A stretch of DNA of 64,000 bases from Mycobacterium sp. (GCA_036558625.1 DATBFF010000222.1:1309-65308); one strand, 5' to 3'. Shown: positions 6,353 to 32,286, counted from the stretch's first letter. The notes: generated by a model not told the origin, from the sequence alone. Numbers and translations: made by a program.

Positions 6353-7554
6353 CGGAGAACCCGTACCTGGTCGGACTGCGGCTGGGCGGCAGGAAGGTCG
6401 TCGTGGTCGGTGGCGGCAGCGTCGCGCAGCGCCGGCTTCCGCTGCTGATCGCCAGCGGCGCCGACGTGCACGTCGTCACCCGCTCGGCCACTCCGGCGGT
6501 CGAGGCGATGACCGGAATTTCGTTGGAGCTCAGGGATTACCGCGACGGCGATCTCGACGGCGCGTGGTATGCGATCGCCGCGACCGACGACCCGGGCGTC
6601 AACGCGGCGGTCGTCGCCGCGGCCGAAGCGCGCCACATTTTCTGCGTTCGCGCCGACATCGCGCGCGACGGAACTGCCGTCACGCCCGCGTCTTTCGAAT
6701 ATGAAGGCCTTGCCGTCGGTGTGCTGGCGGGTGGCGAGCACCGGCGGTCCGCCGCGATCCGCTCAGCGATCCACGAGGCGATGCAGCAGGGCGTCATCTC
6801 TGACGCGCCGGAGACCGGCCATACCGGGGTCGCGCTCGTCGGCGGCGGCCCGGGCGACCCCGAGCTGATCACGGTTCGTGGCCGTCGTCTGCTCGCGCAG
6901 GCGGACGTGGTCGTCGCCGACCGGCTGGCGCCACCCGAGCTGCTCGCAGAACTGGCGCCCCACGTCGAAGTGATCGACGCCGCCAAGATCCCCTACGGGC
7001 GGGCGATGGCTCAGGACGCAATCAACACCGTGCTCGTCGACCGCGCGAAACAAGGCAAGTTCGTCGTCCGGCTCAAAGGCGGCGACCCCTTCGTGTTCGC
7101 CCGAGGGTACGAGGAGGTGCTCGCCTGCGCCGACGCGGGCATTCCGGTAATGGTCGTGCCGGGTGTGACAAGCGCCATAGCTGTACCCGCATTGGCCGGC
7201 GTTCCGGTCACCCACCGGTCGGTCACGCACGAGTTTGTGGTGGTCAGCGGCCATGTTCCACCGGGGCACCCGGAATCGTTAGTGAATTGGGACGCGCTGG
7301 CGGCGATGTCGGGGACGATCGTGTTGATGATGGCGGTCGAGCGGATCGAGCAGTTCGCCGACGCCTTGCTCGCGGGCGGCCGACCTGCGGGAACTCCGGT
7401 TTTGGTGATTCAGCAGGGCACTACCGCGGCCGAACGCACTGTGCTCACATCACTTGCTGACGCGCCGAAACGGATTCGCGAAGAGGGTATTCGACCTCCG
7501 GCGATCATCGTCATCGGGCCGGTCGCAGGATTCGCGGAATTAAAGAATCCCTAA
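6349..7554 (+). CDS. cysG: Precorrin-2 dehydrogenase / uroporphyrinogen-III C-methyltransferase (siroheme synthase, Rv2847c-like)
   Basis: VVVVGGGSVAQRR NAD motif, VALVGGGPGDPELIT, RLKGGDPFVFARG. Confidence 0.93.
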   Translation: MTENPYLVGLRLGGRKVVVVGGGSVAQRRLPLLIASGADVHVVTRSATPAVEAMTGISLELRDYRDGDLDGAWYAIAATDDPGVNAAVVAAAEARHIFCVRADIARDGTAVTPASFEYEGLAVGVLAGGEHRRSAAIRSAIHEAMQQGVISDAPETGHTGVALVGGGPGDPELITVRGRRLLAQADVVVADRLAPPELLAELAPHVEVIDAAKIPYGRAMAQDAINTVLVDRAKQGKFVVRLKGGDPFVFARGYEEVLACADAGIPVMVVPGVTSAIAVPALAGVPVTHRSVTHEFVVVSGHVPPGHPESLVNWDALAAMSGTIVLMMAVERIEQFADALLAGGRPAGTPVLVIQQGTTAAERTVLTSLADAPKRIREEGIRPPAIIVIGPVAGFAELKNP

Positions 7555-7576
7555 GAGTACTGTAAGGTAACTTCGC

Positions 7577-9157
7577 ATGACGGCTCTCAGTGATGCGGAG
7601 CGCGCGACGGTGGTTTCGCGCCGCGAAAGGACTGCTGTCGATCGCGCCAATCAGGCCGCTTTGCAGGCCTCGCAGCGCACTTCCCGGGCTCGTCCCGCGT
7701 GGCTGCCGTCGCGTCGGTTTGTCGCCGCGGTGGTTGCCATCGGAGGCATGCAGCTGCTCGCCACGATGGACAGCACCGTCGCGATCGTCGCGTTGCCGAA
7801 GATCCAGGACGAGCTGAATCTGTCCGACGCCGGTCGCAGCTGGGTGATCACCGCCTACGTGTTGACGTTCGGCGGGCTGATGCTGCTCGGCGGCCGGCTC
7901 GGCGATGCGATCGGCCGCAAGCGCACGTTCATCGCCGGTGTCGCGATGTTCACGATCGCGTCGATCCTCTGCGGCCTGGCGTGGAATGAGCCGACGATGG
8001 TCACCGCGCGGCTGCTGCAGGGCGTCGGCGCTGCTATCGCGTCGCCCACGGCCCTTGCGCTGATCGCGACCACCTTCCCCAAGGGCCCGGCCCGCAACAT
8101 GGCGACCGCAATCTTCGCGGCGATGACGGGCATCGGCTCGGTTATGGGCCTGATCGTCGGCGGCGCCCTGACCGAGGTGTCGTGGCGGTGGGCATTTTTG
8201 ATCAACGTGCCGATCGGGTTGTTGATGGTCTATTTGGCCTACACCACGCTCGTCGAAACGCATCGCGAGCCAATGAAACTCGATGCCACCGGCGCGATCC
8301 TGGCCACGCTGGGCTGCACAGCAGCGGTGTTCGGCTTCTCGATGGGACCGGAGGCGGGCTGGCTGTCACCACTGACGGTCGGCTCCGGCATCGCGGCGCT
8401 GGTGTTCCTCGGCATGTTCGCGATGACGGAACGCACCGCCGAGAACCCGCTGGTACCGCTCGACCTGTTCCGCGACCGCAACCGGGTGGCGACGTTCGCG
8501 GCGATCTTCCTCGCCGGTGGTGTGATGTTCACCCTGACCGTGCTGATCGGCCTGTACGTCCAGGACATCATGGGCTACAGCGCGCTGCGTGCGGGCGTCG
8601 GCTTCATCCCGTTCGTGATCGCGCTGGGCATCGGGCTGGGGATGTCGTCACATCTGGTGTCACAGTTCCCGCCGCGGGTCCTGGTTATCGCAGGCGGCGT
8701 GTTCGTGCTTGGCGCGATGATCTACGGCTCGACGCTCAACGGCGGCATCCCGTACTTCCCCAACCTGGTGCTGCCGATCACGGTCGGTGGGTTCGGCATC
8801 GGCATGATCGTGGTCCCGCTGACTGTGTCCGCGATCGCGGGCGTCGGCTTCGACCGGATCGGACCGGTGTCGGCGATCGCGCTGATGCTGCAGAATCTCG
8901 GCGGCCCGGTGATCCTGGCGATTGTGCAGGCCGTCATCACGTCGCGCACGCTGTACCTCGGCGGTACAACCGGTCCGGTGAAGAACATGAATGCGGCGCA
9001 GTTGCACGCACTCGACCACGGCTACACCTACGGGCTGCTGTGGGTGGCGGGCGTCGCGATCATCGTTGGGGGGGCGGCGTTGTTCATCGGCTACACCTCC
9101 AAAGAGGTGGCGCACGCGCAGGAAGTCAAGGACGCGCTGGACGCCGGAGAGCTTTAG
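7577..9157 (+). CDS. efpA: DHA2/MFS efflux pump EfpA
   Basis: GGMQLLATMDSTVAIVALPKIQ, GGRLGDAIGRKR, multiple TM segments; syntenic between cysG and proS. Confidence 0.9.
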   Translation: MTALSDAERATVVSRRERTAVDRANQAALQASQRTSRARPAWLPSRRFVAAVVAIGGMQLLATMDSTVAIVALPKIQDELNLSDAGRSWVITAYVLTFGGLMLLGGRLGDAIGRKRTFIAGVAMFTIASILCGLAWNEPTMVTARLLQGVGAAIASPTALALIATTFPKGPARNMATAIFAAMTGIGSVMGLIVGGALTEVSWRWAFLINVPIGLLMVYLAYTTLVETHREPMKLDATGAILATLGCTAAVFGFSMGPEAGWLSPLTVGSGIAALVFLGMFAMTERTAENPLVPLDLFRDRNRVATFAAIFLAGGVMFTLTVLIGLYVQDIMGYSALRAGVGFIPFVIALGIGLGMSSHLVSQFPPRVLVIAGGVFVLGAMIYGSTLNGGIPYFPNLVLPITVGGFGIGMIVVPLTVSAIAGVGFDRIGPVSAIALMLQNLGGPVILAIVQAVITSRTLYLGGTTGPVKNMNAAQLHALDHGYTYGLLWVAGVAIIVGGAALFIGYTSKEVAHAQEVKDALDAGEL

Positions 9158-9219
9158 CTCGACATTTGGCGCCGGAGAGCTTTAGCTCGACATTGGGCTC
9201 CGGAGAGCTTTAGCTCGAC
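9143..9219 (+). repeat. 28-bp tandem repeat (~2.75 copies) spanning the efpA stop codon
   Basis: gccggagagctttagctcgacatttggc / gccggagagctttagctcgacattgggc / tccggagagctttagctcgac. Confidence 0.92.
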
Positions 9220-9243
9220 GCCCCCCTCGGTAGGGTAGCCGCC

Positions 9244-10707
9244 ATGTTCGCGGCGCGACGTAGCCAACGGACGCCGCTGGCCGCCAGCGTCGTCGGAATC
9301 GCGATCATCGCGATCACCGGCATGCAGCTGATGTCGACGCTCGACGGCACGATCGTCATCGTCGCGCTGCCCCGCATGCAGATCGACCTGAACATGTCGG
9401 ACGCCGCGAAGAGCTGGGTGATCACCGCCTATGTGCTGACGTTCGGCGGCTTGCTACTGCTCGGCGGCAGGGTCGGTGATGCCGTCGGCCACAAACGCGC
9501 GTTCATCGGCGGGGTCGCCGTGTTCACGGCGGCATCGCTGGTGTGCGGCCTGGCATACGACCCGGCCATGCTGATCGTCGCCCGCGCAGTGCAGGGCACG
9601 GGCGCCGCCGTGGCCGCACCCACCGGACTGGCGCTGATCGCGTCGACGTATGCGGTCGGCCACGCCCGGAACCAGGCGATGGCGGTGTCGGCCGCGATGC
9701 AGGGCGTCGGCTCGGTGCTCGGCCTGGTGCTCGGCGGCGCGTTCACCGTGATCTCGTGGCGGCTGGCGTTTTTGATCAACGTGCCGATTGGGATCGTCAT
9801 CATCTACATCGCGATGACGCGGTTGCGGGAGACGCACCGCGAAAGGCTGCGACTCGACGCGCTCGGTGCCTTCTTGGCGACACTGGCCTGCACGATGGCC
9901 GTGCTGGTGTTCACGCAAGGCCCCCCGCTGGGGTGGGCCAGCCCGTGGGTGGTCGGCGCCGGCGTGGCCACGGTGCTGCTGCTGGGCGCGTTTTTGCTGG
10001 TCGAACGCACCGCCGAGCACCCGCTTGTGCCGCTGTCGTTGTTCACCCATCGCAACCGGGTGATGACGTTCGTGTCGCTGTTCATGGCGGGCGGCGTGTT
10101 GCTGACGCTGACGGTGATGATCGGCCTCTACGTGCAGGTCGTGCTCGGGTACTCGGCGCTGCGGGCGGGCATCTGCTTCATCCCGTTCGCTGTCGCGCTG
10201 GGTCTCGGCAACGTGTCCGCGGCACGGGTGGCGCCGCTGATCGCGCCGCGCTGGCTGATTCTCGGCGGCGGCTTGTTCGTGTTGGGCGCGATGCTGTACG
10301 GCTCGACGCTGAACCGCTCGCTGTCCTACTTCCCGGAGCTGTTCGTGCCGATCGTCGTCGGCGGCTTCGGGATCGGCGTGATCTCGGTGATCCTGCCGCT
10401 GTGCGCCCTCGCCGAGGTCGGGCCACGCGAGATCGGCCCGGTCGCCGCGATCACGCTGATGGTGCAGAACCTCGGCGGGCCGCTCGTGCTCGTCGTGATT
10501 CAGGCCGTGCAGGTGTCGCGCACCCTGTACTTGGAGAAGACCACCACCCCCGCTTACGCACTGGACCATGGCTACACGTACTCGCTGCTGTGGGTCGCCG
10601 CCATCGCGGTGCTGGTGGGCATCAGCGCGTTCTGGATCGGGTTCTCGGCCCGGCAGATCGCGGCCGCGCAGTACACCCGCGAGGCCGTCGAGGCGGGCGA
10701 ACTGTAG
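9244..10707 (+). CDS. Second EfpA-like MFS efflux pump (tandem paralogue)
   Basis: [31 protein letters not shown], same EAGEL-type C-terminus. ATG 7 nt after TAGGGT. Confidence 0.9.
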
Positions 10708-22081: not shown

Positions 22082-22154
22082 GTGAGTCGCGCACCGCACT
22101 CGCTACAGAACCTGCCCGTCGAACTGCACTGCGCGCCGCAAAAGCCACAGATCA
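22082..22154 (-). pseudogene. 5' remnant (zinc ribbon) of a third cyclase-ATPase gene
   Basis: Closely matches 27051-27123; translates as ICGFCGAQCSSTGRFCSECGARLT; no in-frame start and no cyclase domain follows. Confidence 0.8.
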
Positions 22155-23950: not shown

Positions 23951-26900
23951 TTAAGGGCGACCGTCGACCATCGCCTCGGCCCATTCGATGTGTCCTTCGA
24001 AGCCAAGCGATTTCGCCATGGCGCGGTAGCGATCCCGGTAATCCCGGTAGTCCATCTCATCGCCGCGGGCACGGGCTAGCAGGGCATGCAGCCGCAGCAG
24101 CCAGATGTCGCGCACAACTGACCCGTCGTCTGCTGGCGCGGCCGCTAGCCGCTCGATAGCGGCCTCGGCTTCGGCCACATCCGCCCCGGCGCCGCGTTCG
24201 AGCAGCGTCTCCACCAGGACACCCGTCGCAGGGATTCCCCACGAGAGCAGCTGGCCCTCGCGAACCAGGTCGTCGATGGCCGCGCGCATGAGCGCTATCG
24301 CCTCCTCGCGATCTCCACGCCGAGCCAACTCACGCCCCAAGTACGTGTTGACGGACCGTAACTCGCTCAGGTTGTGTCCCCGTCGTTCGAACATGTCGCT
24401 GATCTCCGCCAGCAGCTGCTGTCCGCGGTCTCGCTCGGCGTCCGTGTGGCGGTGCACTAGCGCAAGGGCCAGAATCGCCCGGTCGAAGGCCACCGCCATA
24501 TCATCACCGGATCGTTCGGCAATCCGTAGCGCATCCTCGATCTCGCGCAGGGCCGCATCATCAACAGCCAGTACGCCAAACGGTATTCCCGGGAAGTAGA
24601 CATAGGCGACAACCGTGGCATACGAAAACGGGTCGACGCTGCGGGCCATGGCCAGGCCGTGCCGCACGTCGTCGCGCCATCCGGGACGACCCAGGCAATA
24701 CCGGCCGATAGCCCTCGTCGTACAGGCGAGAGCTAGCGGAGACCCGATCATCAGGTTCCCTTTAGAAGGATCGCCGTCGGCGAGGTCGATGGCCCGCTGC
24801 GACCACCGCAGCACGTCGCACCACTCACCGCTGTGAGCCTTGGCGTAGATCACCGGGAAGGACAGCCCCACCGTCAGAGTCGCATCGCCGAGCGACTCGA
24901 CGAGCGCCCACGCTTCCGATGCCAGCTGCGACGCCTCGCGGTTCCGGCCTTGGAATCCTCGGTCTATCACCAGCCCTGCCATGCCGATGGCCAGTGAAGC
25001 CTTGTCCTCGGCGGCGGCGCACAACTCCCGCAATTCATCAATCCGATTGCCTGCCACGTTTGCGTGGAGTCTCCAGGCGATCCCGCACAGCATCGTCCGG
25101 GGTGCGACGCGCATCGCTGTCCGGTTCGCGTCTTCGGTTGGCAGCGTGTCGGCGATCGCTTGGGCGCGCTCCCAACTTTGTCGCGCCGCGGCGATGTCGC
25201 GGTATGTCGCCCACGTGGCGGCGCGCATATGCCACTGATACGCGGCGTGCAGATCCTCGGCGGCCTCCAGATGTTCGGCAATCAAAGCCGCGTTCTCCTC
25301 TGCCGCCGCGGGGTCACGTGATTCGATTGCGACCGCGACGCGTCGGTGGAGTTCGGCACGATCGGATTTGAGCTGGGATTCGTAGGCCACGGCGCGAATC
25401 AGCGGGTGCCTGAAGGCATATTCGGCGTGCGGGGTGAACCGCACCTGATCGATCAGTTCCGCGTCCAGCAATTCGTCAACCGCTGCGTCGACGCCCACCG
25501 CGGCGAGCAGCCGCGTGTCGAAGCGGGCCCCGATCACCGATGCCGCGTTCAATGTTCGCTTGGCCGGGGCGGTCAGCCGGTCGATGCGGGCCTCGATGGC
25601 CGCCTGCACCGTTTCCGGCACGGTCAGCTCGGCGACGTCGGCGCGACAAACGTAGTCGCCGTGCTCACCGGTCAGCACGCCGCGTTGTACCAATTCGCGC
25701 ACCATCTCCTCGGCGAAGAACGGATTGCCGGCGGCACGTTCGGCGATGATTGTCATAAGCTCGCCGACCGAGGGATCCGAACCCAGCAGCGCCGAGAGCA
25801 GGGCAGCGGTGTCCGAATCACCCAGTGGGGCAAGCGCGATCGTCTGACCGCCGTGCACCCGGGTCAGCGCGCCTTCATATTCGGGACGGTAAGTGATCAG
25901 CACCATCGACGGCGTACGCGGAATCACGGTGAGCAAGTCGGCCACCATCGACTCGCTGACCTCGTCGATCCAGTGGGTGTCCTCGATGATGTAGAGCACC
26001 GGTTCGGTGCGTGCCAGCGTCACCGAGTTCAGCAGCGCGGTTAACCGCCGCCGCCGCGCATCGGGGTCGATCTGGGGCAGCGCCACATCCGGATCGGCGA
26101 TGCCCAGCAGATCATCGAGCAGCAGCAGATCCTGCGGGTCGGCGTCGGGGACCTGTTCGTGGGCGCGAGCGCGGGCAGCTTGGTCATCGAGGTCGACGAC
26201 GCCGCTAGCCGTGCGCAGCAGCCGCGTGACCACGTCGAAGGCAATGTCGCTGGCGTGGGATTCGCAGTAGGTCCAATACACCTCGGCGCCGCGAGCCGCC
26301 GCCAATGCTGCGGCCTCGCGGGCCACCCGAGACTTGCCGATACCGGGCGGTCCCACCACATTCACCACGCCACCGTTACCGCCGGTCGTGGCGCCCACCA
26401 AAGCTTCGAGGGCGGCCATCTCCCAGCGCCGGCCGACCAGGCTGGCCTCGGTGCGCCCAATCAGCGCACGCCGCGGGCCGATGGCCACCAGCCGGCGAGC
26501 CCGCACCGGCTCATCGGAGCCCTTGATGCGCACCCACTGCGGGTCAGAGAGCACGACGCTGTCTTCGACCAGCCGGGCGGTCGACTCCGAGAGCATCACC
26601 GCGCCTGCGGGCGCTACCGATTCCATCCGCTGCGCGAACCCGACGTGCCGCCCGGTCGCTGCGTAGCCCAAGGATCCCGAGCCGATATCGCCGGCGATCA
26701 CGCGGCCCGAATTCAGCCCGACCCGTACTTGCAGCGCCACCTCGTCACGCCGCTGTATTTCGGTGGCCAACTGCTTCATCTCGTCCTGGATGGCCAAAGC
26801 GGCCACACATGCCCGAAAAGCGTGGTCCTCCAAGGCCGTTGGGGCGCCGAATAGCGCCATCACCCCATCGCCGGTGTACTCGACGCGCCCGCCGCCGTAG

Positions 26901-27220
26901 CGCTCGACCACTGCCGCCGACCGCTCCACGAGTTCGCCCATGATTTCGCGGTACCGCTCCGAATCGAGGATTGCCGCGAGGTCCATGGAGCGCACCACAT
27001 CGGCGAAAAGCACTGTCACCTGTTTGTACTCAGCCGAACGGCTCGCCTGTGTGAGTCGCGCACCGCACTCGCTACAGTACTTGCCCGTCGAACTTGAACG
27101 TGCGCCGCAGGAACCACAGATCAGCCGCGTCGCGGCCAGTCCATCGCCACCATCCCGGCTGGCACCCACGGCACCTATCGTTTCACCGCTGATCAGCGAT
27201 GTCTGCCGTATCGCCGCCAT
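23951..27220 (-). CDS. Zinc ribbon - class III nucleotide cyclase - AAA ATPase - helical/TPR-like protein (copy A)
   Basis: CGSC..CSEC, VTVLFADV, EYTGDG, RVGLNSG, VGFAQRMES, GPPGIGKS, IIEDTHWID. ORF track extends to 27229. Confidence 0.9.
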   Translation of the reverse strand: MAAIRQTSLISGETIGAVGASRDGGDGLAATRLICGSCGARSSSTGKYCSECGARLTQASRSAEYKQVTVLFADVVRSMDLAAILDSERYREIMGELVERSAAVVERYGGGRVEYTGDGVMALFGAPTALEDHAFRACVAALAIQDEMKQLATEIQRRDEVALQVRVGLNSGRVIAGDIGSGSLGYAATGRHVGFAQRMESVAPAGAVMLSESTARLVEDSVVLSDPQWVRIKGSDEPVRARRLVAIGPRRALIGRTEASLVGRRWEMAALEALVGATTGGNGGVVNVVGPPGIGKSRVAREAAALAAARGAEVYWTYCESHASDIAFDVVTRLLRTASGVVDLDDQAARARAHEQVPDADPQDLLLLDDLLGIADPDVALPQIDPDARRRRLTALLNSVTLARTEPVLYIIEDTHWIDEVSESMVADLLTVIPRTPSMVLITYRPEYEGALTRVHGGQTIALAPLGDSDTAALLSALLGSDPSVGELMTIIAERAAGNPFFAEEMVRELVQRGVLTGEHGDYVCRADVAELTVPETVQAAIEARIDRLTAPAKRTLNAASVIGARFDTRLLAAVGVDAAVDELLDAELIDQVRFTPHAEYAFRHPLIRAVAYESQLKSDRAELHRRVAVAIESRDPAAAEENAALIAEHLEAAEDLHAAYQWHMRAATWATYRDIAAARQSWERAQAIADTLPTEDANRTAMRVAPRTMLCGIAWRLHANVAGNRIDELRELCAAAEDKASLAIGMAGLVIDRGFQGRNREASQLASEAWALVESLGDATLTVGLSFPVIYAKAHSGEWCDVLRWSQRAIDLADGDPSKGNLMIGSPLALACTTRAIGRYCLGRPGWRDDVRHGLAMARSVDPFSYATVVAYVYFPGIPFGVLAVDDAALREIEDALRIAERSGDDMAVAFDRAILALALVHRHTDAERDRGQQLLAEISDMFERRGHNLSELRSVNTYLGRELARRGDREEAIALMRAAIDDLVREGQLLSWGIPATGVLVETLLERGAGADVAEAEAAIERLAAAPADDGSVVRDIWLLRLHALLARARGDEMDYRDYRDRYRAMAKSLGFEGHIEWAEAMVDGRP

Positions 27221-27462
27221 TCGACACAAACTTTCGAGGCTCTCATGCCGGGGTGCACCCGGACTTCCTCTCGCGCCGGGGCGCTTGCGGCAAAGAAGCT
27301 GCTGACCGCTGCAGCGAGGCGCTCCAGATGACCCTCGAGTGGAGATGTCAAGGTGCCAAAGCCTGCGGATCGGCAGGCAACCGCTCAGAGCGGTCCGCCA
27401 GCCGAGTCACGATGCGGCTCTGCATCACCGATAGCCGATCCGCTAAACCGGTGATGCCCCGA

Positions 27463-30400
27463 CTATTTACCGCCCTCGGTCATGTTTTCGGCCCAGTCGA
27501 TGTGTCCTTCGAAGCCGAGCGATTTCGCCATCGCGCGGTAGCGATCCCGGTAATCCCGGTAATTCATCTCATCGCCACGAGCCCGAGAGAGCAGCGCGCG
27601 CAGCCGCAGCAAGGTTATTGCGAGCACCGCCGAATCATGCTCTGCGGCAACGTTCGCCATCCAGTCGATCGCCTCTTGAGCTTCGGTCAGATCGCCTTCG
27701 GCGGCGCGGTCCAGCAGCGTCTCCATCAAGACACCGGTGGCCCACACGCCATAGAAGGGGTATCCCTGGCGCAGCTCGTCGACGGCTTGACGCATCGCCG
27801 CTATGGCAGCATCGTGGTCGCCGCGCCTGGCCGTTTCGCGGGCGGCCCACACGTCGGTGACCGGTAGGAGGAAGAAGATCTGCCTGCGCAGCCATAGCTC
27901 GCGGGTCTGCATCATCAGTTCAAGCCCGCGGTGACGGTCGGCCGCGTCGTCCTGACTCAGTAGGCTGACAGCCAACGTGTAACCGGCCAAGCCCAGCGCT
28001 CGATCGCTACTGGCTCTTTGGGCGGTCTGCACCGCATCCTCGCTGGCGCGCAGCAGCGAGTCATCAGCCCGAAGCACCCCGTATTGCATCGCGAAACCGT
28101 AGGTCCAGGCGATGGCCCCGGAGAGGGTTTCCGCGTTGCTGCGTCGGGCCATCGCGACGGCGTCGTGGAGGTCTTCACGCCATCCGGCACGGCCCAGACA
28201 CCACCGAGCGGTGCCGCGCCATCCCAACGCGATCGCGAGCGGTGATGCCACGCCGTAGCCGGCGCCCTTGACGGGGTCACCGGCTGCCAGGTCGACCATG
28301 GTCTGCGACCACCGCAAGACTTCGCCGAATTCCAGGACACCGTGCCAGCTGCAGAAGGTTACGGCCGCCAACCCCATGGTCGGGGTGGGATCGCCGATCG
28401 ACTCGAGTAGCGCCATCTGTTGGGATGACAACTGCGCGGCCTCACGCGCGCGCCCCGCGTACATGAGCTCGGTGGCGGGCCCGCTCATGCCGATGGCCAG
28501 CGAGACCTTGTCCCCAGCCGCAATGCACAACTCCTGCAGCTCCGCGAACCGGCCCCGGCTCTCGTGGATCGCTCGCGCTTGAAAGTCGGTGGCACACAGC
28601 ATGGTGCGGGGAGCGATCCGCATCGACAGTTGGTCGGGGTCGTCGGCAGGCAGCAGATCGGCGATCCGGAGTGCACGCTCCCAGCTGCTCCGGGCGGCGT
28701 TCAGATCGCGGTTGGTGGACCACGCACCGGCACGCATATGCCAGCCATACGCCGCGTGCAGTTCACCCGCAGCCTGCAGATGTTCGGCGATCAGCGCAGC
28801 GTTCTCCTCGACTGACCCCGGCGCACGCTCTTGAATTGCGGCGGCCAGACGTCGGTGCCACTCGGCGCGATCGGAATTCAGCTGTGATTCGTAGGCCACC
28901 GCGCGGATCAGCGGGTGCCGGAACGCGTACTCGGCACTTGCGGTGAAGCGCACCTGCTCGATCAGCTCCGCGTCGAGCAGCTCATCGAACATCGCATCGC
29001 TGCCCAACGCGGACAGCAGCTCCGCCGCGAATCGGACTCCAATCACCGACGCCGCGTTCAACGTCCGTCTGGCAGGGGCGCTCAGCCGGTCGATGCGCGC
29101 GTCAATGGCCGCCGCCACAGTGGCGGGCACGCTCACCTCGGCGACATCCTCGCGACAGGTGTGGCCGCCGCGTTCACCGGCGAGTACGCCGCGCTGGACC
29201 ATCTCGCGCACCATCTCCTCGGCGAAAAACGGGTTCCCGGCGGCCCGCTCGGCGATGACCGCCACGAGTTCGCGAACCGAGGGATCCGACCCCAGCAGTT
29301 CACCGAGCAGCGCGTTGATGTCCGTATCGCCCAGTGGGCCAAGCGCTATCGTCTGCGCACCATGCACCCGCAGCAGCGCGCCCTCGTACTCGGGGCGGGA
29401 GGTGATCAACACCATCGACGCCGTGTGCGGGATCACGGCCAGGAAGTCGGCCAGCATTGACTCGCTGACCGCATCGATCCAGTGTGCATCCTCGATGATG
29501 AACAGCGCCGGTTTGCTTCGGGCCAGCGCGCGCGTGTTGATCAGTGCGGTCAACCTGCGCCGTCGGACGTCCGGGTCCATCTGGGGCAGAGACACATTCG
29601 GGTCGGCGATGCCCAGCAGGTCATCGAACAGGAGCAGATCTTGCGGATCGGCATCCGGAATCTGCTGTCGCACTCTTGCGCGGGCGGCTTGGTCGTCGAG
29701 GTCGGTCAAATCGTTGCCTGCGCGCAGCAGCCTGGTGACGGCATGGAATGGAATGTCGCGAGCATGCGATTCGCAGAACCCCCAGAACACCTCCGCCCCA
29801 CGACTGGCAGCCAAGGCGGCGGACTCCCGGGCCAATCGGCTTTTGCCGATGCCCGGCGGTCCCACCACATTCACCACACCACCACGCCGACCAATCGCGC
29901 GCTCCAGCATCGCGTCGAGAGCCGCCATTTCCCAATGCCGACCGACCAGGCTCGCCTCGGTGCGTCTGACCAAACCATCGCGCGGGTTGATCGACAGCAG
30001 CCGTTGCGCGCGAATCGGCCCGTCGGCGCCTTTGATATGCACCCATTCCGGTTCAGCCAAAATGACGGTGTGCTCGACCAGCTGCGCGGTCGCCTCCGAA
30101 AGCATCACCCCAGCCGGCGGCGCCGCAGACTCCATCCGCTGTGCAAACCCGACCGTCTCGCCCGTCGCGGCGTACCTGGGCGATCCCGTACCGACCTGAC
30201 CGACGATCACCCGACCCGAATTCAGGCCGACTCGCAACTCCAGGGCCACGCCATCGGTGCACTGAACCTTCTTAGCCAAACCATCTGCTTCTTCCTGGAT
30301 AGCCAGGGCGGCCAGGCATGCCCGGAAAGCATGATCCTCCAAGGCAATCGGGGCGCCGAACAACACCATCAATCCGTCGCCGGTGAACTCCACGGTCCCG

Positions 30401-30729
30401 CCGCCGTAGCGGCGCGCCACCGCGGCCGAGCGCTCCACCAGCTCAGTGATGACCTCCCGCAGCCGCTCGATATCCAGGACGGCTGCAAGGTCCATCGAAC
30501 GCACCACATCGGCGAACAACACCGTCACCTGCTTGTACTCCGACGAACGGGTTGCCTGTGTGAGTTGCGAACCGCACTCGCTACAGAACTTGCCCGTCGA
30601 ACTCGAATGCGCGCCGCAGGAACCGCAGATCAGCCCTGTCGCGGCGAGTCCTTCGCCGCCATCCCGGCTGGCACCCACGGCACTTATCGTTTCACCGCTG
30701 GACAGTGATATCTGGCGTATCGCCGCCAT
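27463..30729 (-). CDS. Zinc ribbon - class III nucleotide cyclase - AAA ATPase - helical/TPR-like protein (copy B)
   Basis: Same architecture: VTVLFADV, EFTGDG, VGFAQRMES, GPPGIGKS, IIEDAHWID; shared C-terminus YRDYRDRYRAMAKSLGFEGHI. ORF track extends to 30738. Confidence 0.9.
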   Translation of the reverse strand: MAAIRQISLSSGETISAVGASRDGGEGLAATGLICGSCGAHSSSTGKFCSECGSQLTQATRSSEYKQVTVLFADVVRSMDLAAVLDIERLREVITELVERSAAVARRYGGGTVEFTGDGLMVLFGAPIALEDHAFRACLAALAIQEEADGLAKKVQCTDGVALELRVGLNSGRVIVGQVGTGSPRYAATGETVGFAQRMESAAPPAGVMLSEATAQLVEHTVILAEPEWVHIKGADGPIRAQRLLSINPRDGLVRRTEASLVGRHWEMAALDAMLERAIGRRGGVVNVVGPPGIGKSRLARESAALAASRGAEVFWGFCESHARDIPFHAVTRLLRAGNDLTDLDDQAARARVRQQIPDADPQDLLLFDDLLGIADPNVSLPQMDPDVRRRRLTALINTRALARSKPALFIIEDAHWIDAVSESMLADFLAVIPHTASMVLITSRPEYEGALLRVHGAQTIALGPLGDTDINALLGELLGSDPSVRELVAVIAERAAGNPFFAEEMVREMVQRGVLAGERGGHTCREDVAEVSVPATVAAAIDARIDRLSAPARRTLNAASVIGVRFAAELLSALGSDAMFDELLDAELIEQVRFTASAEYAFRHPLIRAVAYESQLNSDRAEWHRRLAAAIQERAPGSVEENAALIAEHLQAAGELHAAYGWHMRAGAWSTNRDLNAARSSWERALRIADLLPADDPDQLSMRIAPRTMLCATDFQARAIHESRGRFAELQELCIAAGDKVSLAIGMSGPATELMYAGRAREAAQLSSQQMALLESIGDPTPTMGLAAVTFCSWHGVLEFGEVLRWSQTMVDLAAGDPVKGAGYGVASPLAIALGWRGTARWCLGRAGWREDLHDAVAMARRSNAETLSGAIAWTYGFAMQYGVLRADDSLLRASEDAVQTAQRASSDRALGLAGYTLAVSLLSQDDAADRHRGLELMMQTRELWLRRQIFFLLPVTDVWAARETARRGDHDAAIAAMRQAVDELRQGYPFYGVWATGVLMETLLDRAAEGDLTEAQEAIDWMANVAAEHDSAVLAITLLRLRALLSRARGDEMNYRDYRDRYRAMAKSLGFEGHIDWAENMTEGGK

Positions 30730-30831
30730 CTTCGACACGAACTTTCCAGATTCTCGTAAGTGGTCTGAATCGAGACCGATCGTTTCGAGTGTTCAGATCG
30801 ATCGGCCGATCCGGACACGGTGCCAGCTGCC

Positions 30832-32286
30832 TCAGCCCGCTGATAGCTTCAGCACCCGATGATTGTGGTTGTCGGCTATATACACGTTGCCTGCACCATC
30901 TACTGCTAAGCCGATGGGACGGTTGAGTCCGGCGATGGGCAGGTCCCTCTGAGGTGCCGTCCCGCCGCGCAATATCAGCATCCGACTCGGTAAGGAATTG
31001 CTGTTGTCGTACGTACCCACGCCGTCGGCCACGTAGACGTTTCCGGAGTCATCTACGGCCACACCCGTCGGTTTGTGAAGTCCGGTGAAGGGAAGTTCGA
31101 TCTGCGGAGCCCTTCCACGTGACAACATCAACACCCGTGAATGGCGTTCGTCGCTGACGTATACGTCGCCCCTACTGGTCAGAGCTATCCAGGACGGCCA
31201 ATCCAGGCCGGTGAACGGTAGTTCGTCCTGCGGGCCTTTTCCCGCAGTTAATTTGAGTACGCGGTTGTTGCCCACGTCGACGACGAAAATATCGCCGGCA
31301 TCATCGAGGGCGATCCCGGCGGGATAGTTGAGCCCCGCGAACGGCAGTTCGATCTGCGGGCCTGATCCGCCCGGCAACTCGAGAACACGGTTGTTGTTGC
31401 AATCGGTGACATACACATTGCCCGCGTCATCCACCGCCACGCCATTTGGGTTGCTGAGTCCCGTGAACGCGAGCTCGGTCTGTGGTCCTGAGCCGCCAGC
31501 CAACTTCAACACCCGCTTGCTTGCAAAGTCTGTCACGTAGATGTTGCCTGCCCGATCCACGGCGACTCCGACGGGGTCAGTCAGGCCAGTGATCGGCAGC
31601 TCGGTAACCTTCGGCTCAGATAACTTGTTGTTGGACGGCTCTTTTCGTGCGGTACTGACGACCGCCACGACTGATACAGCGATGATGAGTAGAACGATTG
31701 CCGAAGCTGCCGCCAATGCGCTGCGACGACGCCACCATGGGCGCGTCGGGACCGAAGGACCCGAATGGTCTGCTTGCCCAGAAGCTGGGACTGGTGGCGC
31801 CGCACGATCTGCCGATCCGCCGGATTTGGCTCGCTCAACATCGGTGCGCGGGATGTTTTCAGAACCGGTGCCGGCTGACGGACGAGAGCCGACGAAGGTC
31901 TTGACCGCAGTCGCAAGTCGCTCGAGATGGCTTTCAAGTGGCGGAGTCATCGCATCAAGCCAGTGGGGTGTCCCGAGGAAGTACTCCAGGCCGCGCTCGG
32001 GGGCAACATCTTCGATGCGGAACGGGATCAGCACAGTTTCAGCGTTCACTGCTCGTTCGACCTCACGTTTGATCTGGGGCGAAGCGTTGGCGTGCTGACT
32101 GAACACAAGCACCATGACGCGGGACGAACGGATCGCATCGACGATGGCCTCTCCCCAGTCTTGGCCAGGTACGACGTCGCGCGGCGCGATCCAGCAGCGA
32201 ATGCCGTCGGCTTCCAAAGTGGCGCATACCGCATCGGCTGCCGGCTTGTCGTGGTGCGAGTAGCTGATGAACACGTCATGTGCCAC
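30832..32286 (-). CDS. TIR domain - transmembrane helix - six NHL-repeat beta-propeller protein
   Basis: TIR: DVFISYSHHD..CWIAPRDVVPGQDW..IKREV; TM ALAAASAIVLLIIAVSVVAVV after RPWWRRR; six LPFTGL..P.GVAVD..GNVYV.D..N.RVLKL repeats. Confidence 0.9.
   Translation of the reverse strand: MAHDVFISYSHHDKPAADAVCATLEADGIRCWIAPRDVVPGQDWGEAIVDAIRSSRVMVLVFSQHANASPQIKREVERAVNAETVLIPFRIEDVAPERGLEYFLGTPHWLDAMTPPLESHLERLATAVKTFVGSRPSAGTGSENIPRTDVERAKSGGSADRAAPPVPASGQADHSGPSVPTRPWWRRRSALAAASAIVLLIIAVSVVAVVSTARKEPSNNKLSEPKVTELPITGLTDPVGVAVDRAGNIYVTDFASKRVLKLAGGSGPQTELAFTGLSNPNGVAVDDAGNVYVTDCNNNRVLELPGGSGPQIELPFAGLNYPAGIALDDAGDIFVVDVGNNRVLKLTAGKGPQDELPFTGLDWPSWIALTSRGDVYVSDERHSRVLMLSRGRAPQIELPFTGLHKPTGVAVDDSGNVYVADGVGTYDNSNSLPSRMLILRGGTAPQRDLPIAGLNRPIGLAVDGAGNVYIADNHNHRVLKLSAG

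Follow-up and report, generated by a model that had tools for sequence, protein, structure and literature searches.

Class III nucleotidyl cyclases need head-to-tail dimers. In the solved complexes of guanylyl cyclases (GCs) with GTP, including that of rhodopsin guanylyl cyclase (RhGC), a Glu at the first base-reading position is the chief guanine determinant (PMC7384201). The second residue is variable in GCs (Cys, Ser, Thr, His, Ala or Gly) and provides shape complementarity without a hydrogen bond (PMC4215837; PMC7384201; PMC6005667). In Synechocystis Cya2, the exchange E488K alone turns a specific GC into a specific adenylyl cyclase (AC) (PMC5995499), and XC_0250 of X. campestris, which has Ala at the second position, uses GTP and not ATP (PMC3770947). 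Here we describe two tandem genes, A and B, that encode class III cyclases joined to STAND ATPases and lie in a 64,000-nucleotide stretch of DNA from a soil Mycobacterium sp. (GCA_036558625.1 DATBFF010000222.1:1309-65308; the window). Both combine Glu at the first base-reading position with Ala at the second, and these three precedents make a preference for GTP the best reading. We give about even credence to the proposal that A and B are active cyclases that prefer GTP and make cyclic GMP (cGMP), possibly with cyclic AMP (cAMP) as a side product.

The two proteins are 64% identical along their whole length, and residue numbers follow the long open reading frames and are the same in both. The Pfam model PF00211 (Guanylate_cyc) covers residues 66-238 with 86.4 bits in A and 82.4 bits in B, for a cut-off of 21.9. 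The genes, their cyclase domains and the codons discussed below are located in the window as follows.

23951..27229, minus strand: gene A, cyclase-STAND protein of 1092 amino acids counted from a TTG (open reading frame and translation, Pfam)
27463..30738, minus strand: gene B, tandem paralogue of A, 1091 amino acids counted from a GTG (open reading frame and translation, Pfam)
26480..27043, minus strand: class III cyclase domain of A (PF00211, 2.4e-24; PDB alignments; AlphaFold2 and Foldseek)
29989..30552, minus strand: class III nucleotidyl cyclase domain of B (PF00211, 4e-23; alignment)
26879..26881 in A and 30388..30390 in B, minus strand: GAG codon of Glu117, base-specifying position 1
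26660..26662 in A and 30169..30171 in B, minus strand: codon of Ala190, at a position with Asp in ACs and Cys, Ser, Thr, Ala or Gly in GCs
26627..26641 in A and 30136..30150 in B, minus strand: G197-F-A-Q200-R201, the rewired helix-4 motif (canonical N-x-x-S-R)

Catalytic and base-reading residues

Residues were placed unambiguously by a phmmer alignment of the cyclase domain to PDB sequences and by alignment of a profile of 94 family members to the PDB, with P. aeruginosa CyaB (3r5g), Synechocystis Cya2 (2w01) and RhGC (6ao9/6sir) among the references. The placement is the same in a MAFFT alignment that includes every other cyclase encoded in the genome. The eight-residue catalytic table published for RhGC and Cya2 (PMC6005667) served as the mapping reference, and the equivalences are these:

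Metal Asp 1: Asp457 in RhGC, D77 (FADV) in A and B
Base position 1 (Lys or Glu): Glu497 in RhGC, E117 (VEYTGD / VEFTGD) in A and B
Metal Asp 2: Asp501 in RhGC, D121 (TGDG) in A and B
Phosphate Arg: Arg545 in RhGC, R169 in A and B
Base position 2 (Asp, Cys or Thr): Cys566 in RhGC, A190 (YAATG) in A and B
Transition-state Asn: Asn573 in RhGC, G197 in A and B
Transition-state Arg: Arg577 in RhGC, R201 (VGFAQR) in A and B
Gamma-phosphate Lys: Lys612 in RhGC, K236 in A and B

The best PDB match to the family profile is CyaB and the second is Cya2 (3e-30). An AlphaFold2 model of residues 31-260, with a predicted local distance difference test score (pLDDT) of 84 and a predicted template-modelling score (pTM) of 0.76, has the cyclase homology fold and superposes on CyaB, CyaC, RhGC and Cya2 with template-modelling scores of 0.84-0.88 normalised by target (Foldseek). 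A sequence-only reading of the window had placed these residues by eye: both metal Asp and the transition-state Arg kept, Glu where ACs have Lys, Ala at the second specificity position, and Gly for the canonical Asn. Each of these placements is borne out in both proteins by the PDB, profile and MAFFT alignments, with which the structural superposition agrees. The adenylyl-type pair of Lys with Asp or Thr is not present; Glu117/Ala190 falls instead within the guanylyl-type repertoire of Glu at the first position and Cys, Ser, Thr, His, Ala or Gly at the second (PMC4215837). On helix 4, the canonical Asn-Arg pair is incomplete, with Arg201 kept, Asn replaced by Gly197, and Gln200 at the +3 position. 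This pattern is neither chance nor sequencing error, since Glu is found in all 147 distinct sequences of the clade to which A and B belong, Gly in 246 of 277 relatives, and D, D, R, G, Q, R and K form invariant columns in 62 full-length relatives.

The same reading had noted that both copies share these changes. They do, but the changes are not special to A and B. The host genome (a 4.46-Mb assembly, 93% complete, with Mycolicibacterium and Mycobacterium species and many soil metagenome-assembled genomes as nearest relatives) encodes about 30 class III cyclase domains, ten of them in proteins of 1050-1150 amino acids with the architecture of A and B. Four of these ten have Glu at the first base position (A and B with Ala, and two proteins on contig C4 with Thr), while six have Lys/Thr; the Lys/Thr paralogues would, by their pocket residues, be predicted to make cAMP. 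Among 291 cyclase domains from the nearest database relatives, the pairs Glu/Ala (78) and Lys/Thr (75) are followed by Glu/Lys (17), Glu/Thr (14), Gln/Thr (13) and Glu/Arg (12). In a maximum-likelihood tree of 208 cyclase domains, sequences with the canonical Asn are outermost, followed by a clade with Lys/Thr and Gly, within which the clade with Glu and Gly is nested. The latter is nearly monophyletic: the tree contains a single Lys/Ala reversal, to which the loci add a few others. Judged from these alignments, a first-position Glu characterises a large sub-clade of the gene family and is no oddity of A and B.

The positions that best separate the Glu clade from the Lys clade are 114-118, followed by 190 and 192. 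Residues 114-118 are the strand with the first base-reading residue and 190/192 belong to the second base position, so that the separating positions lie in the base pocket. In the sub-clade of A and B, the strand segment with the first base-reading residue has been replaced, T-V-D-K-F giving way to G-[T/S]-V-E-Y/F. At the second base position, the Glu clade is variable and has Ala, Thr, Arg, Lys, Gly or Ser.

The Gly on helix 4 has a different distribution. It is found in all ten paralogues of the genome that share the architecture and in about 89% of the relatives in which the position was scored, including members with the ATP-type Lys/Thr pair. In the same domains, hardly any variation is seen at both metal Asp, both Arg and the Lys. 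The Gly covaries with Gln at +3, where the canonical helix-4 motif has Ser: Gly/Gln is seen in 227 sequences against 13 with Asn/Ala, giving the motif V-G-x-A-Q-R (counts made, like the clade comparison, without phylogenetic correction). Structures of RhGC with GTP, of converted RhGC with ATP-alpha-S and of soluble guanylyl cyclase (sGC) with GMPCPP have the ribose hydrogen-bonded to the +3 Ser and not to the Asn (PMC7384201), and in Cya2 a Tyr at +3 boosts GC activity (PMC4215837; PMC6005667). M. avium Ma1120 is active with Ala at the Asn position and is inactivated by the mutation A164N (PMC4215837); the GC XC_0250 has Leu there (PMC3770947). Because the +3 Ser contacts the ribose and both of these enzymes are active without Asn, Gly197 and Gln200 are plausibly an older, family-wide rewiring of ribose positioning, separate from the Glu switch, and by analogy the invariant Gln200 plausibly takes over the role of orienting the sugar. 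The weight that the sequence-only reading had put on the loss of Asn was consequently misplaced: across the aligned family, Gly for Asn is a hallmark, shared with the Lys/Thr paralogues, and not a sign of inactivation.

Product and catalytic competence

A first alternative is that A and B are ACs after all, their odd pocket being tolerated, with cAMP as the main product and a Glu clade that differs from the Lys clade only in kinetics or regulation. We regard this as unlikely, while recognising that it has precedents. Rv0386, Rv1900c and Ma1120 are active mycobacterial ACs with deviant residues, the AC CyaB is the closest match to A and B in sequence and structure alike, and the host genome encodes cAMP receptors, namely a CRP-like protein and others. 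Several observations also weigh directly against the cGMP proposal. The Ma1120 double mutants K101E/D157G and K101E/D157T gain GC activity and still favour ATP by kcat/Km, and Rv1625c and CyaG, when mutated K-to-E or KD-to-EC, merely lose AC activity (PMC4215837). In Rv0386, a related cyclase-ATPase in which the pair is Gln/Asn, AC activity predominates and GC activity is secondary. To go by these analogues, Glu is not sufficient for GTP use in every scaffold. No cGMP receptor was identified in the genome, in which five proteins have a domain that binds cyclic nucleoside monophosphates (cNMPs), none of them encoded on a contig with cyclase-STAND genes. Moreover, the cyclase domain is poorly defined in the AlphaFold2 model of the full-length protein, and neither the Gly/Gln covariation nor the clade-specific differences are phylogenetically independent events. 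Against the AC alternative stand the natural enzymes with a conserved Glu at base position 1, which have proved to be GCs where assayed, and the clade itself: if the contact with the base were irrelevant, one would hardly expect the Glu to be invariant and the entire strand segment around it to have been exchanged. Altered purine selectivity, one of two outcomes that the sequence-only reading had put forward, is the better supported.

Its second outcome was a regulatory pseudo-cyclase, in which the domain binds nucleotide or merely dimerises and no cyclic nucleotide is made. The missing Asn would fit such a protein, as would the loop after the first metal Asp, which reads V-V-R-S-M in A and B in place of I-x-G-F-T. 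However, loss of the Asn is compatible with activity, and in RhGC the loop touches the phosphates through backbone atoms (PMC7384201), so that a change of side chains there should be tolerable. The metal Asp pair, both Arg and the Lys are invariant over hundreds of sequences, and in a tally across loci, 93 of some 100 copies had D77, D121, R169 and K236 together. Selection on the domain is purifying, with a ratio of nonsynonymous to synonymous divergence (dN/dS) between A and B of 0.23, next to 0.21 for the NTPase and 0.46 for the solenoid. Given the invariant core and this constraint, a pseudo-cyclase is improbable.

Sensor chassis, gene layout and neighbourhood

Both proteins begin with a zinc ribbon, continue with the class III cyclase and a P-loop NTPase that includes a winged helix, and have a helical solenoid at the C-terminus. 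The remaining features of the two genes are:

27059..27121, minus strand: zinc ribbon of A, CxxC-x10-CxxC (C38, C41, C52, C55), from the sequence
30568..30630, minus strand: zinc ribbon of B, from the sequence
25898..26440, minus strand: STAND P-loop NTPase of A (AAA_16; Pfam 1.6e-23; fold matches of the full-length model), with Walker A GPPGIGKS including K299 and Walker B IIED including D417, both from the sequence
29407..29949, minus strand: STAND P-loop NTPase of B (AAA_16; Pfam 3.4e-23)
23966..25303, minus strand: C-terminal all-helical TPR-like solenoid of A, the presumed sensor (AlphaFold2 helices, Foldseek)
27478..28812, minus strand: C-terminal helical solenoid of B, the most diverged part, 28-52% identical to A
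27220, minus strand: ATG, likely start of A, giving 1089 amino acids (where nucleotide conservation between A and B begins)
30729, minus strand: ATG, likely start of B (same basis)

Each of the four zinc-ribbon Cys is at least 90% conserved in 94 relatives, and relatives have a precomputed PF13240 match at this place. The AAA_16 match reaches 84 bits, and a NACHT match on B stays below threshold. The full-length AlphaFold2 model (pLDDT 81) has a P-loop alpha/beta core, a winged-helix region and a C-terminal solenoid of about 24 helices at pLDDT >90, and Foldseek matches it to STAND-TPR 6MFV, Avs3, MalT, CED-4, NOD2 and TPR proteins. By sequence, the STAND and solenoid part gave nothing useful in the PDB and no match to any solved STAND protein, and Pfam TPR models matched below threshold only; the designation TPR-like rests on the predicted fold. 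Walker A and B motifs, winged-helix/helical modules and a repeat sensor, recognised from motifs, Pfam and predicted fold, make A and B STAND NTPases. The C-terminal tail RARGDExxYRDYRDRYRAMAKSLGFEGHIxWAE (23954-24080 and 27466-27590, minus strand) is nearly invariant throughout the family and has a dN/dS of 0.20, compared with 0.46 for the solenoid that precedes it.

Some relatives that are 63-67% identical to A over residues 261-1087 bear an N-terminal zf-HC2 anti-sigma zinc finger and not the zinc ribbon and cyclase. Such variants occur at loci L091, L092, L094, L097, L098, L101, L102, L104 and L105, in most of which the match lies at about 7500-10560; the domain was checked with Pfam in L084, L091, L092 and L104. 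Because zf-HC2 replaces ribbon and cyclase on the same chassis, the comparison shows the N-terminus as an exchangeable output module on what would be a common sensor. The exchange points to gene regulation rather than to abortive-infection defence. A C-terminal LuxR output, as in the LAL or Rv0386-type regulators, was rejected: no LuxR (GerE) helix-turn-helix was found, not even when the C-terminal 440 residues were searched with E values of up to 1 accepted, and no other DNA-binding domain was found in A or B.

Activation is likely to proceed as follows. A ligand would be caught by the variable, fast-evolving solenoid, and its recognition would cause nucleotide-dependent oligomerisation of the STAND core, as in other STAND proteins. 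Through oligomerisation, the cyclase domains at the N-termini would come together as the head-to-tail dimers on which class III enzymes depend, and the paired domains would then deliver a burst of cyclic nucleotide.

The two ATG codons listed above (residue 4 of the long open reading frames) are the likely starts because the conservation of the 5' ends begins near them, while gene calls in databases begin 20-30 codons further downstream. Around them (27030-27245 and 30540-30755, minus strand), from about 25 nucleotides before the ATG through the first 190 nucleotides, A and B are about 90% identical in DNA, with a dS of 0.27 compared with about 0.9 across the remaining gene length. This similarity suggests gene conversion or a constraint at the level of mRNA. 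A terminator-like hairpin with a T-rich tail is found at 27298-27315 (minus strand), after the stop codon of B and before the start of A; such sites are no commoner than chance regionally, and a promoter/terminator scan gave no more matches than expected by chance. Just after the lipase stop codon, at 22082-22154 (minus strand), lies a truncated zinc-ribbon coding relic, LVICGFCGAQCSSTGRFCSECGARLTHAEMPSCR, followed by a stop. It matches the N-termini of A and B almost perfectly and, from this likeness, is recognisable as a remnant of a third cyclase-STAND copy.

We surveyed the neighbourhood of 80 related loci. Cyclase-STAND genes usually stand in tandem there, two to six copies head-to-tail, each array being either Lys/Thr throughout or a mix of Glu/Ala, Glu/Thr and Glu/Arg in which Lys/Ala turns up occasionally. 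Cyclase-STAND genes are seen, for instance, on contigs of the host genome (C67 with four in tandem, C4 with two, C24 and C182) and at loci L033, L041 and L046. Their recurrent neighbours comprise cyclase-STAND genes of greater divergence, short-chain dehydrogenase/reductase (SDR), P450 and flavin monooxygenase-esterase genes, and LuxR-AAA regulators; no cNMP-binding effector recurs near the relatives in these loci. The six genes that flank A and B encode, according to Pfam, a lipase, a PE-PPE protein, a TIR-NHL protein, a MatE protein, a Zn-peptidase-like protein and one open reading frame without a family, and none of the six matches PF00027 (cNMP-binding). One of them is of note for its position:

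30832-32286, minus strand: gene immediately upstream of B, in the same orientation, with a TIR domain joined to NHL beta-propeller repeats

A joint system of TIR-NHL, cyclase and peptidase was considered and rejected, the TIR-NHL gene being without homologue in the 80 loci, and its adjacency is taken to be incidental; one unrelated TIR gene lies about 6 kb away in L105. Two named families were likewise rejected. The TOMM kinase/cyclase model (TIGR03903) has a cut-off of 705.75 bits, of which 241 and 243 are reached, and its match begins at profile position 278, so that the kinase part is absent; the LipJ NCBIfam equivalog scores far below its cut-off. The PycC models of PADLOC match A and B only generically, and with no cNMP-binding effector adjacent a Pycsar system was rejected as well. 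Signalling in defence, whether through a pyrimidine or other unusual cyclic nucleotide as in Pycsar or through an immune system with upstream TIR-NHL and NLR-like sensors, is therefore the least probable of the alternatives, even though PycC matches are obtained (best 2.5e-14), a TIR gene does precede B, and the STAND layout, tandem arrays and fast-evolving sensor resemble the NLR/Avs families: the generic PF00211 model outscores the PycC matches, which are such as any class III domain gives, the related loci have metabolic and regulatory genes (SDR, P450, flavin monooxygenase, esterase, LuxR-AAA) as their recurrent neighbours, and relatives carry an anti-sigma domain on the same chassis. A pyrimidine cNMP, as made by PycC, found no support as the product.

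Implications and comparison with known systems

To our knowledge, no dedicated mycobacterial GC is known, and a literature search found no paper on the product of the A/B family or on any mycobacterial GC. The family is large, with at least 7,800 database clusters, ten copies in the host genome and arrays of up to six. With somewhat less than even confidence, we would extend the proposal made for A and B to the family: environmental mycobacteria may hold a large, unrecognised clade of STAND-coupled GCs, a cGMP branch parallel to the Lys/Thr cAMP branch, and the family as a whole may catalyse through Gly-x-x-Gln-Arg, with Gln replacing Asn. If the Glu clade makes cGMP, the genus, with its heavily studied cAMP network, would have a second cyclic-nucleotide channel, and the family would offer a natural and phylogenetically clean Lys-to-Glu series in which to study the choice of purine by class III cyclases. 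Gly-x-x-Gln-Arg would represent a novel way of positioning the ribose. Should the product be cAMP instead, Glu at base position 1 would fail to predict the use of GTP, which would matter for annotation.

A and B belong to known kinds, the class III cyclases and the STAND ATPases, as an uncharacterised variant. Two GCs resemble them in the base pocket. Cya2 (PDB 2W01) has the same homodimeric class III fold at about 27% identity, and its Glu/Gly pair likewise combines Glu with a small second residue; the residue three positions after the Asn, a Tyr, matters for its GC activity. It differs in that it keeps the Asn (VNLTYR), has a CHASE2 membrane sensor in place of the STAND ATPase, and has a measured product where that of A and B is predicted. 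XC_0250, grouped with the R. centenum GC among the closest known systems, is a proven GC that shares with A and B both the Ala at the second position and the lack of the transition-state Asn (PMC3770947). Unlike A and B, it has Ala161 in place of the Arg and Leu in place of the Asn, and it is linked to a cGMP receptor gene, XC_0249, whereas no such partner was found adjoining A and B.

A similar layout is found in M. tuberculosis Rv0386, Rv1358 and Rv2488c, in which an N-terminal class III cyclase is likewise followed by a P-loop ATPase and helical repeats. These end in a LuxR helix-turn-helix, which A and B do not have, and the non-canonical pair of Rv0386, for which GC side activity is reported, is Gln/Asn and not Glu/Ala. 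M. avium Ma1120 (PDB 4WP3, 5D15) is an active cyclase that is naturally without the Asn (Ala164) and gains GC activity in K101E/D157G/T mutants. In contrast to A and B, it is a stand-alone domain with a Lys/Asp pair, and over the Foldseek alignments its identity to the model is only 21-22%. The best matches in sequence and fold, P. aeruginosa CyaB and S. platensis CyaC, are class IIIb ACs with the Lys/Thr pair of the sister paralogues; they keep Asn-x-x-Ser-Arg, where A and B have Gly-x-x-Gln-Arg together with Glu/Ala. Finally, PH0952 (6MFV), MalT, AfsR and Avs3 share with A and B the fold of a P-loop NTPase with helical-repeat sensor and an exchangeable N-terminal output. The output of these STAND-TPR systems is a DNA-binding or nuclease domain, whereas that of A and B is a nucleotide cyclase.

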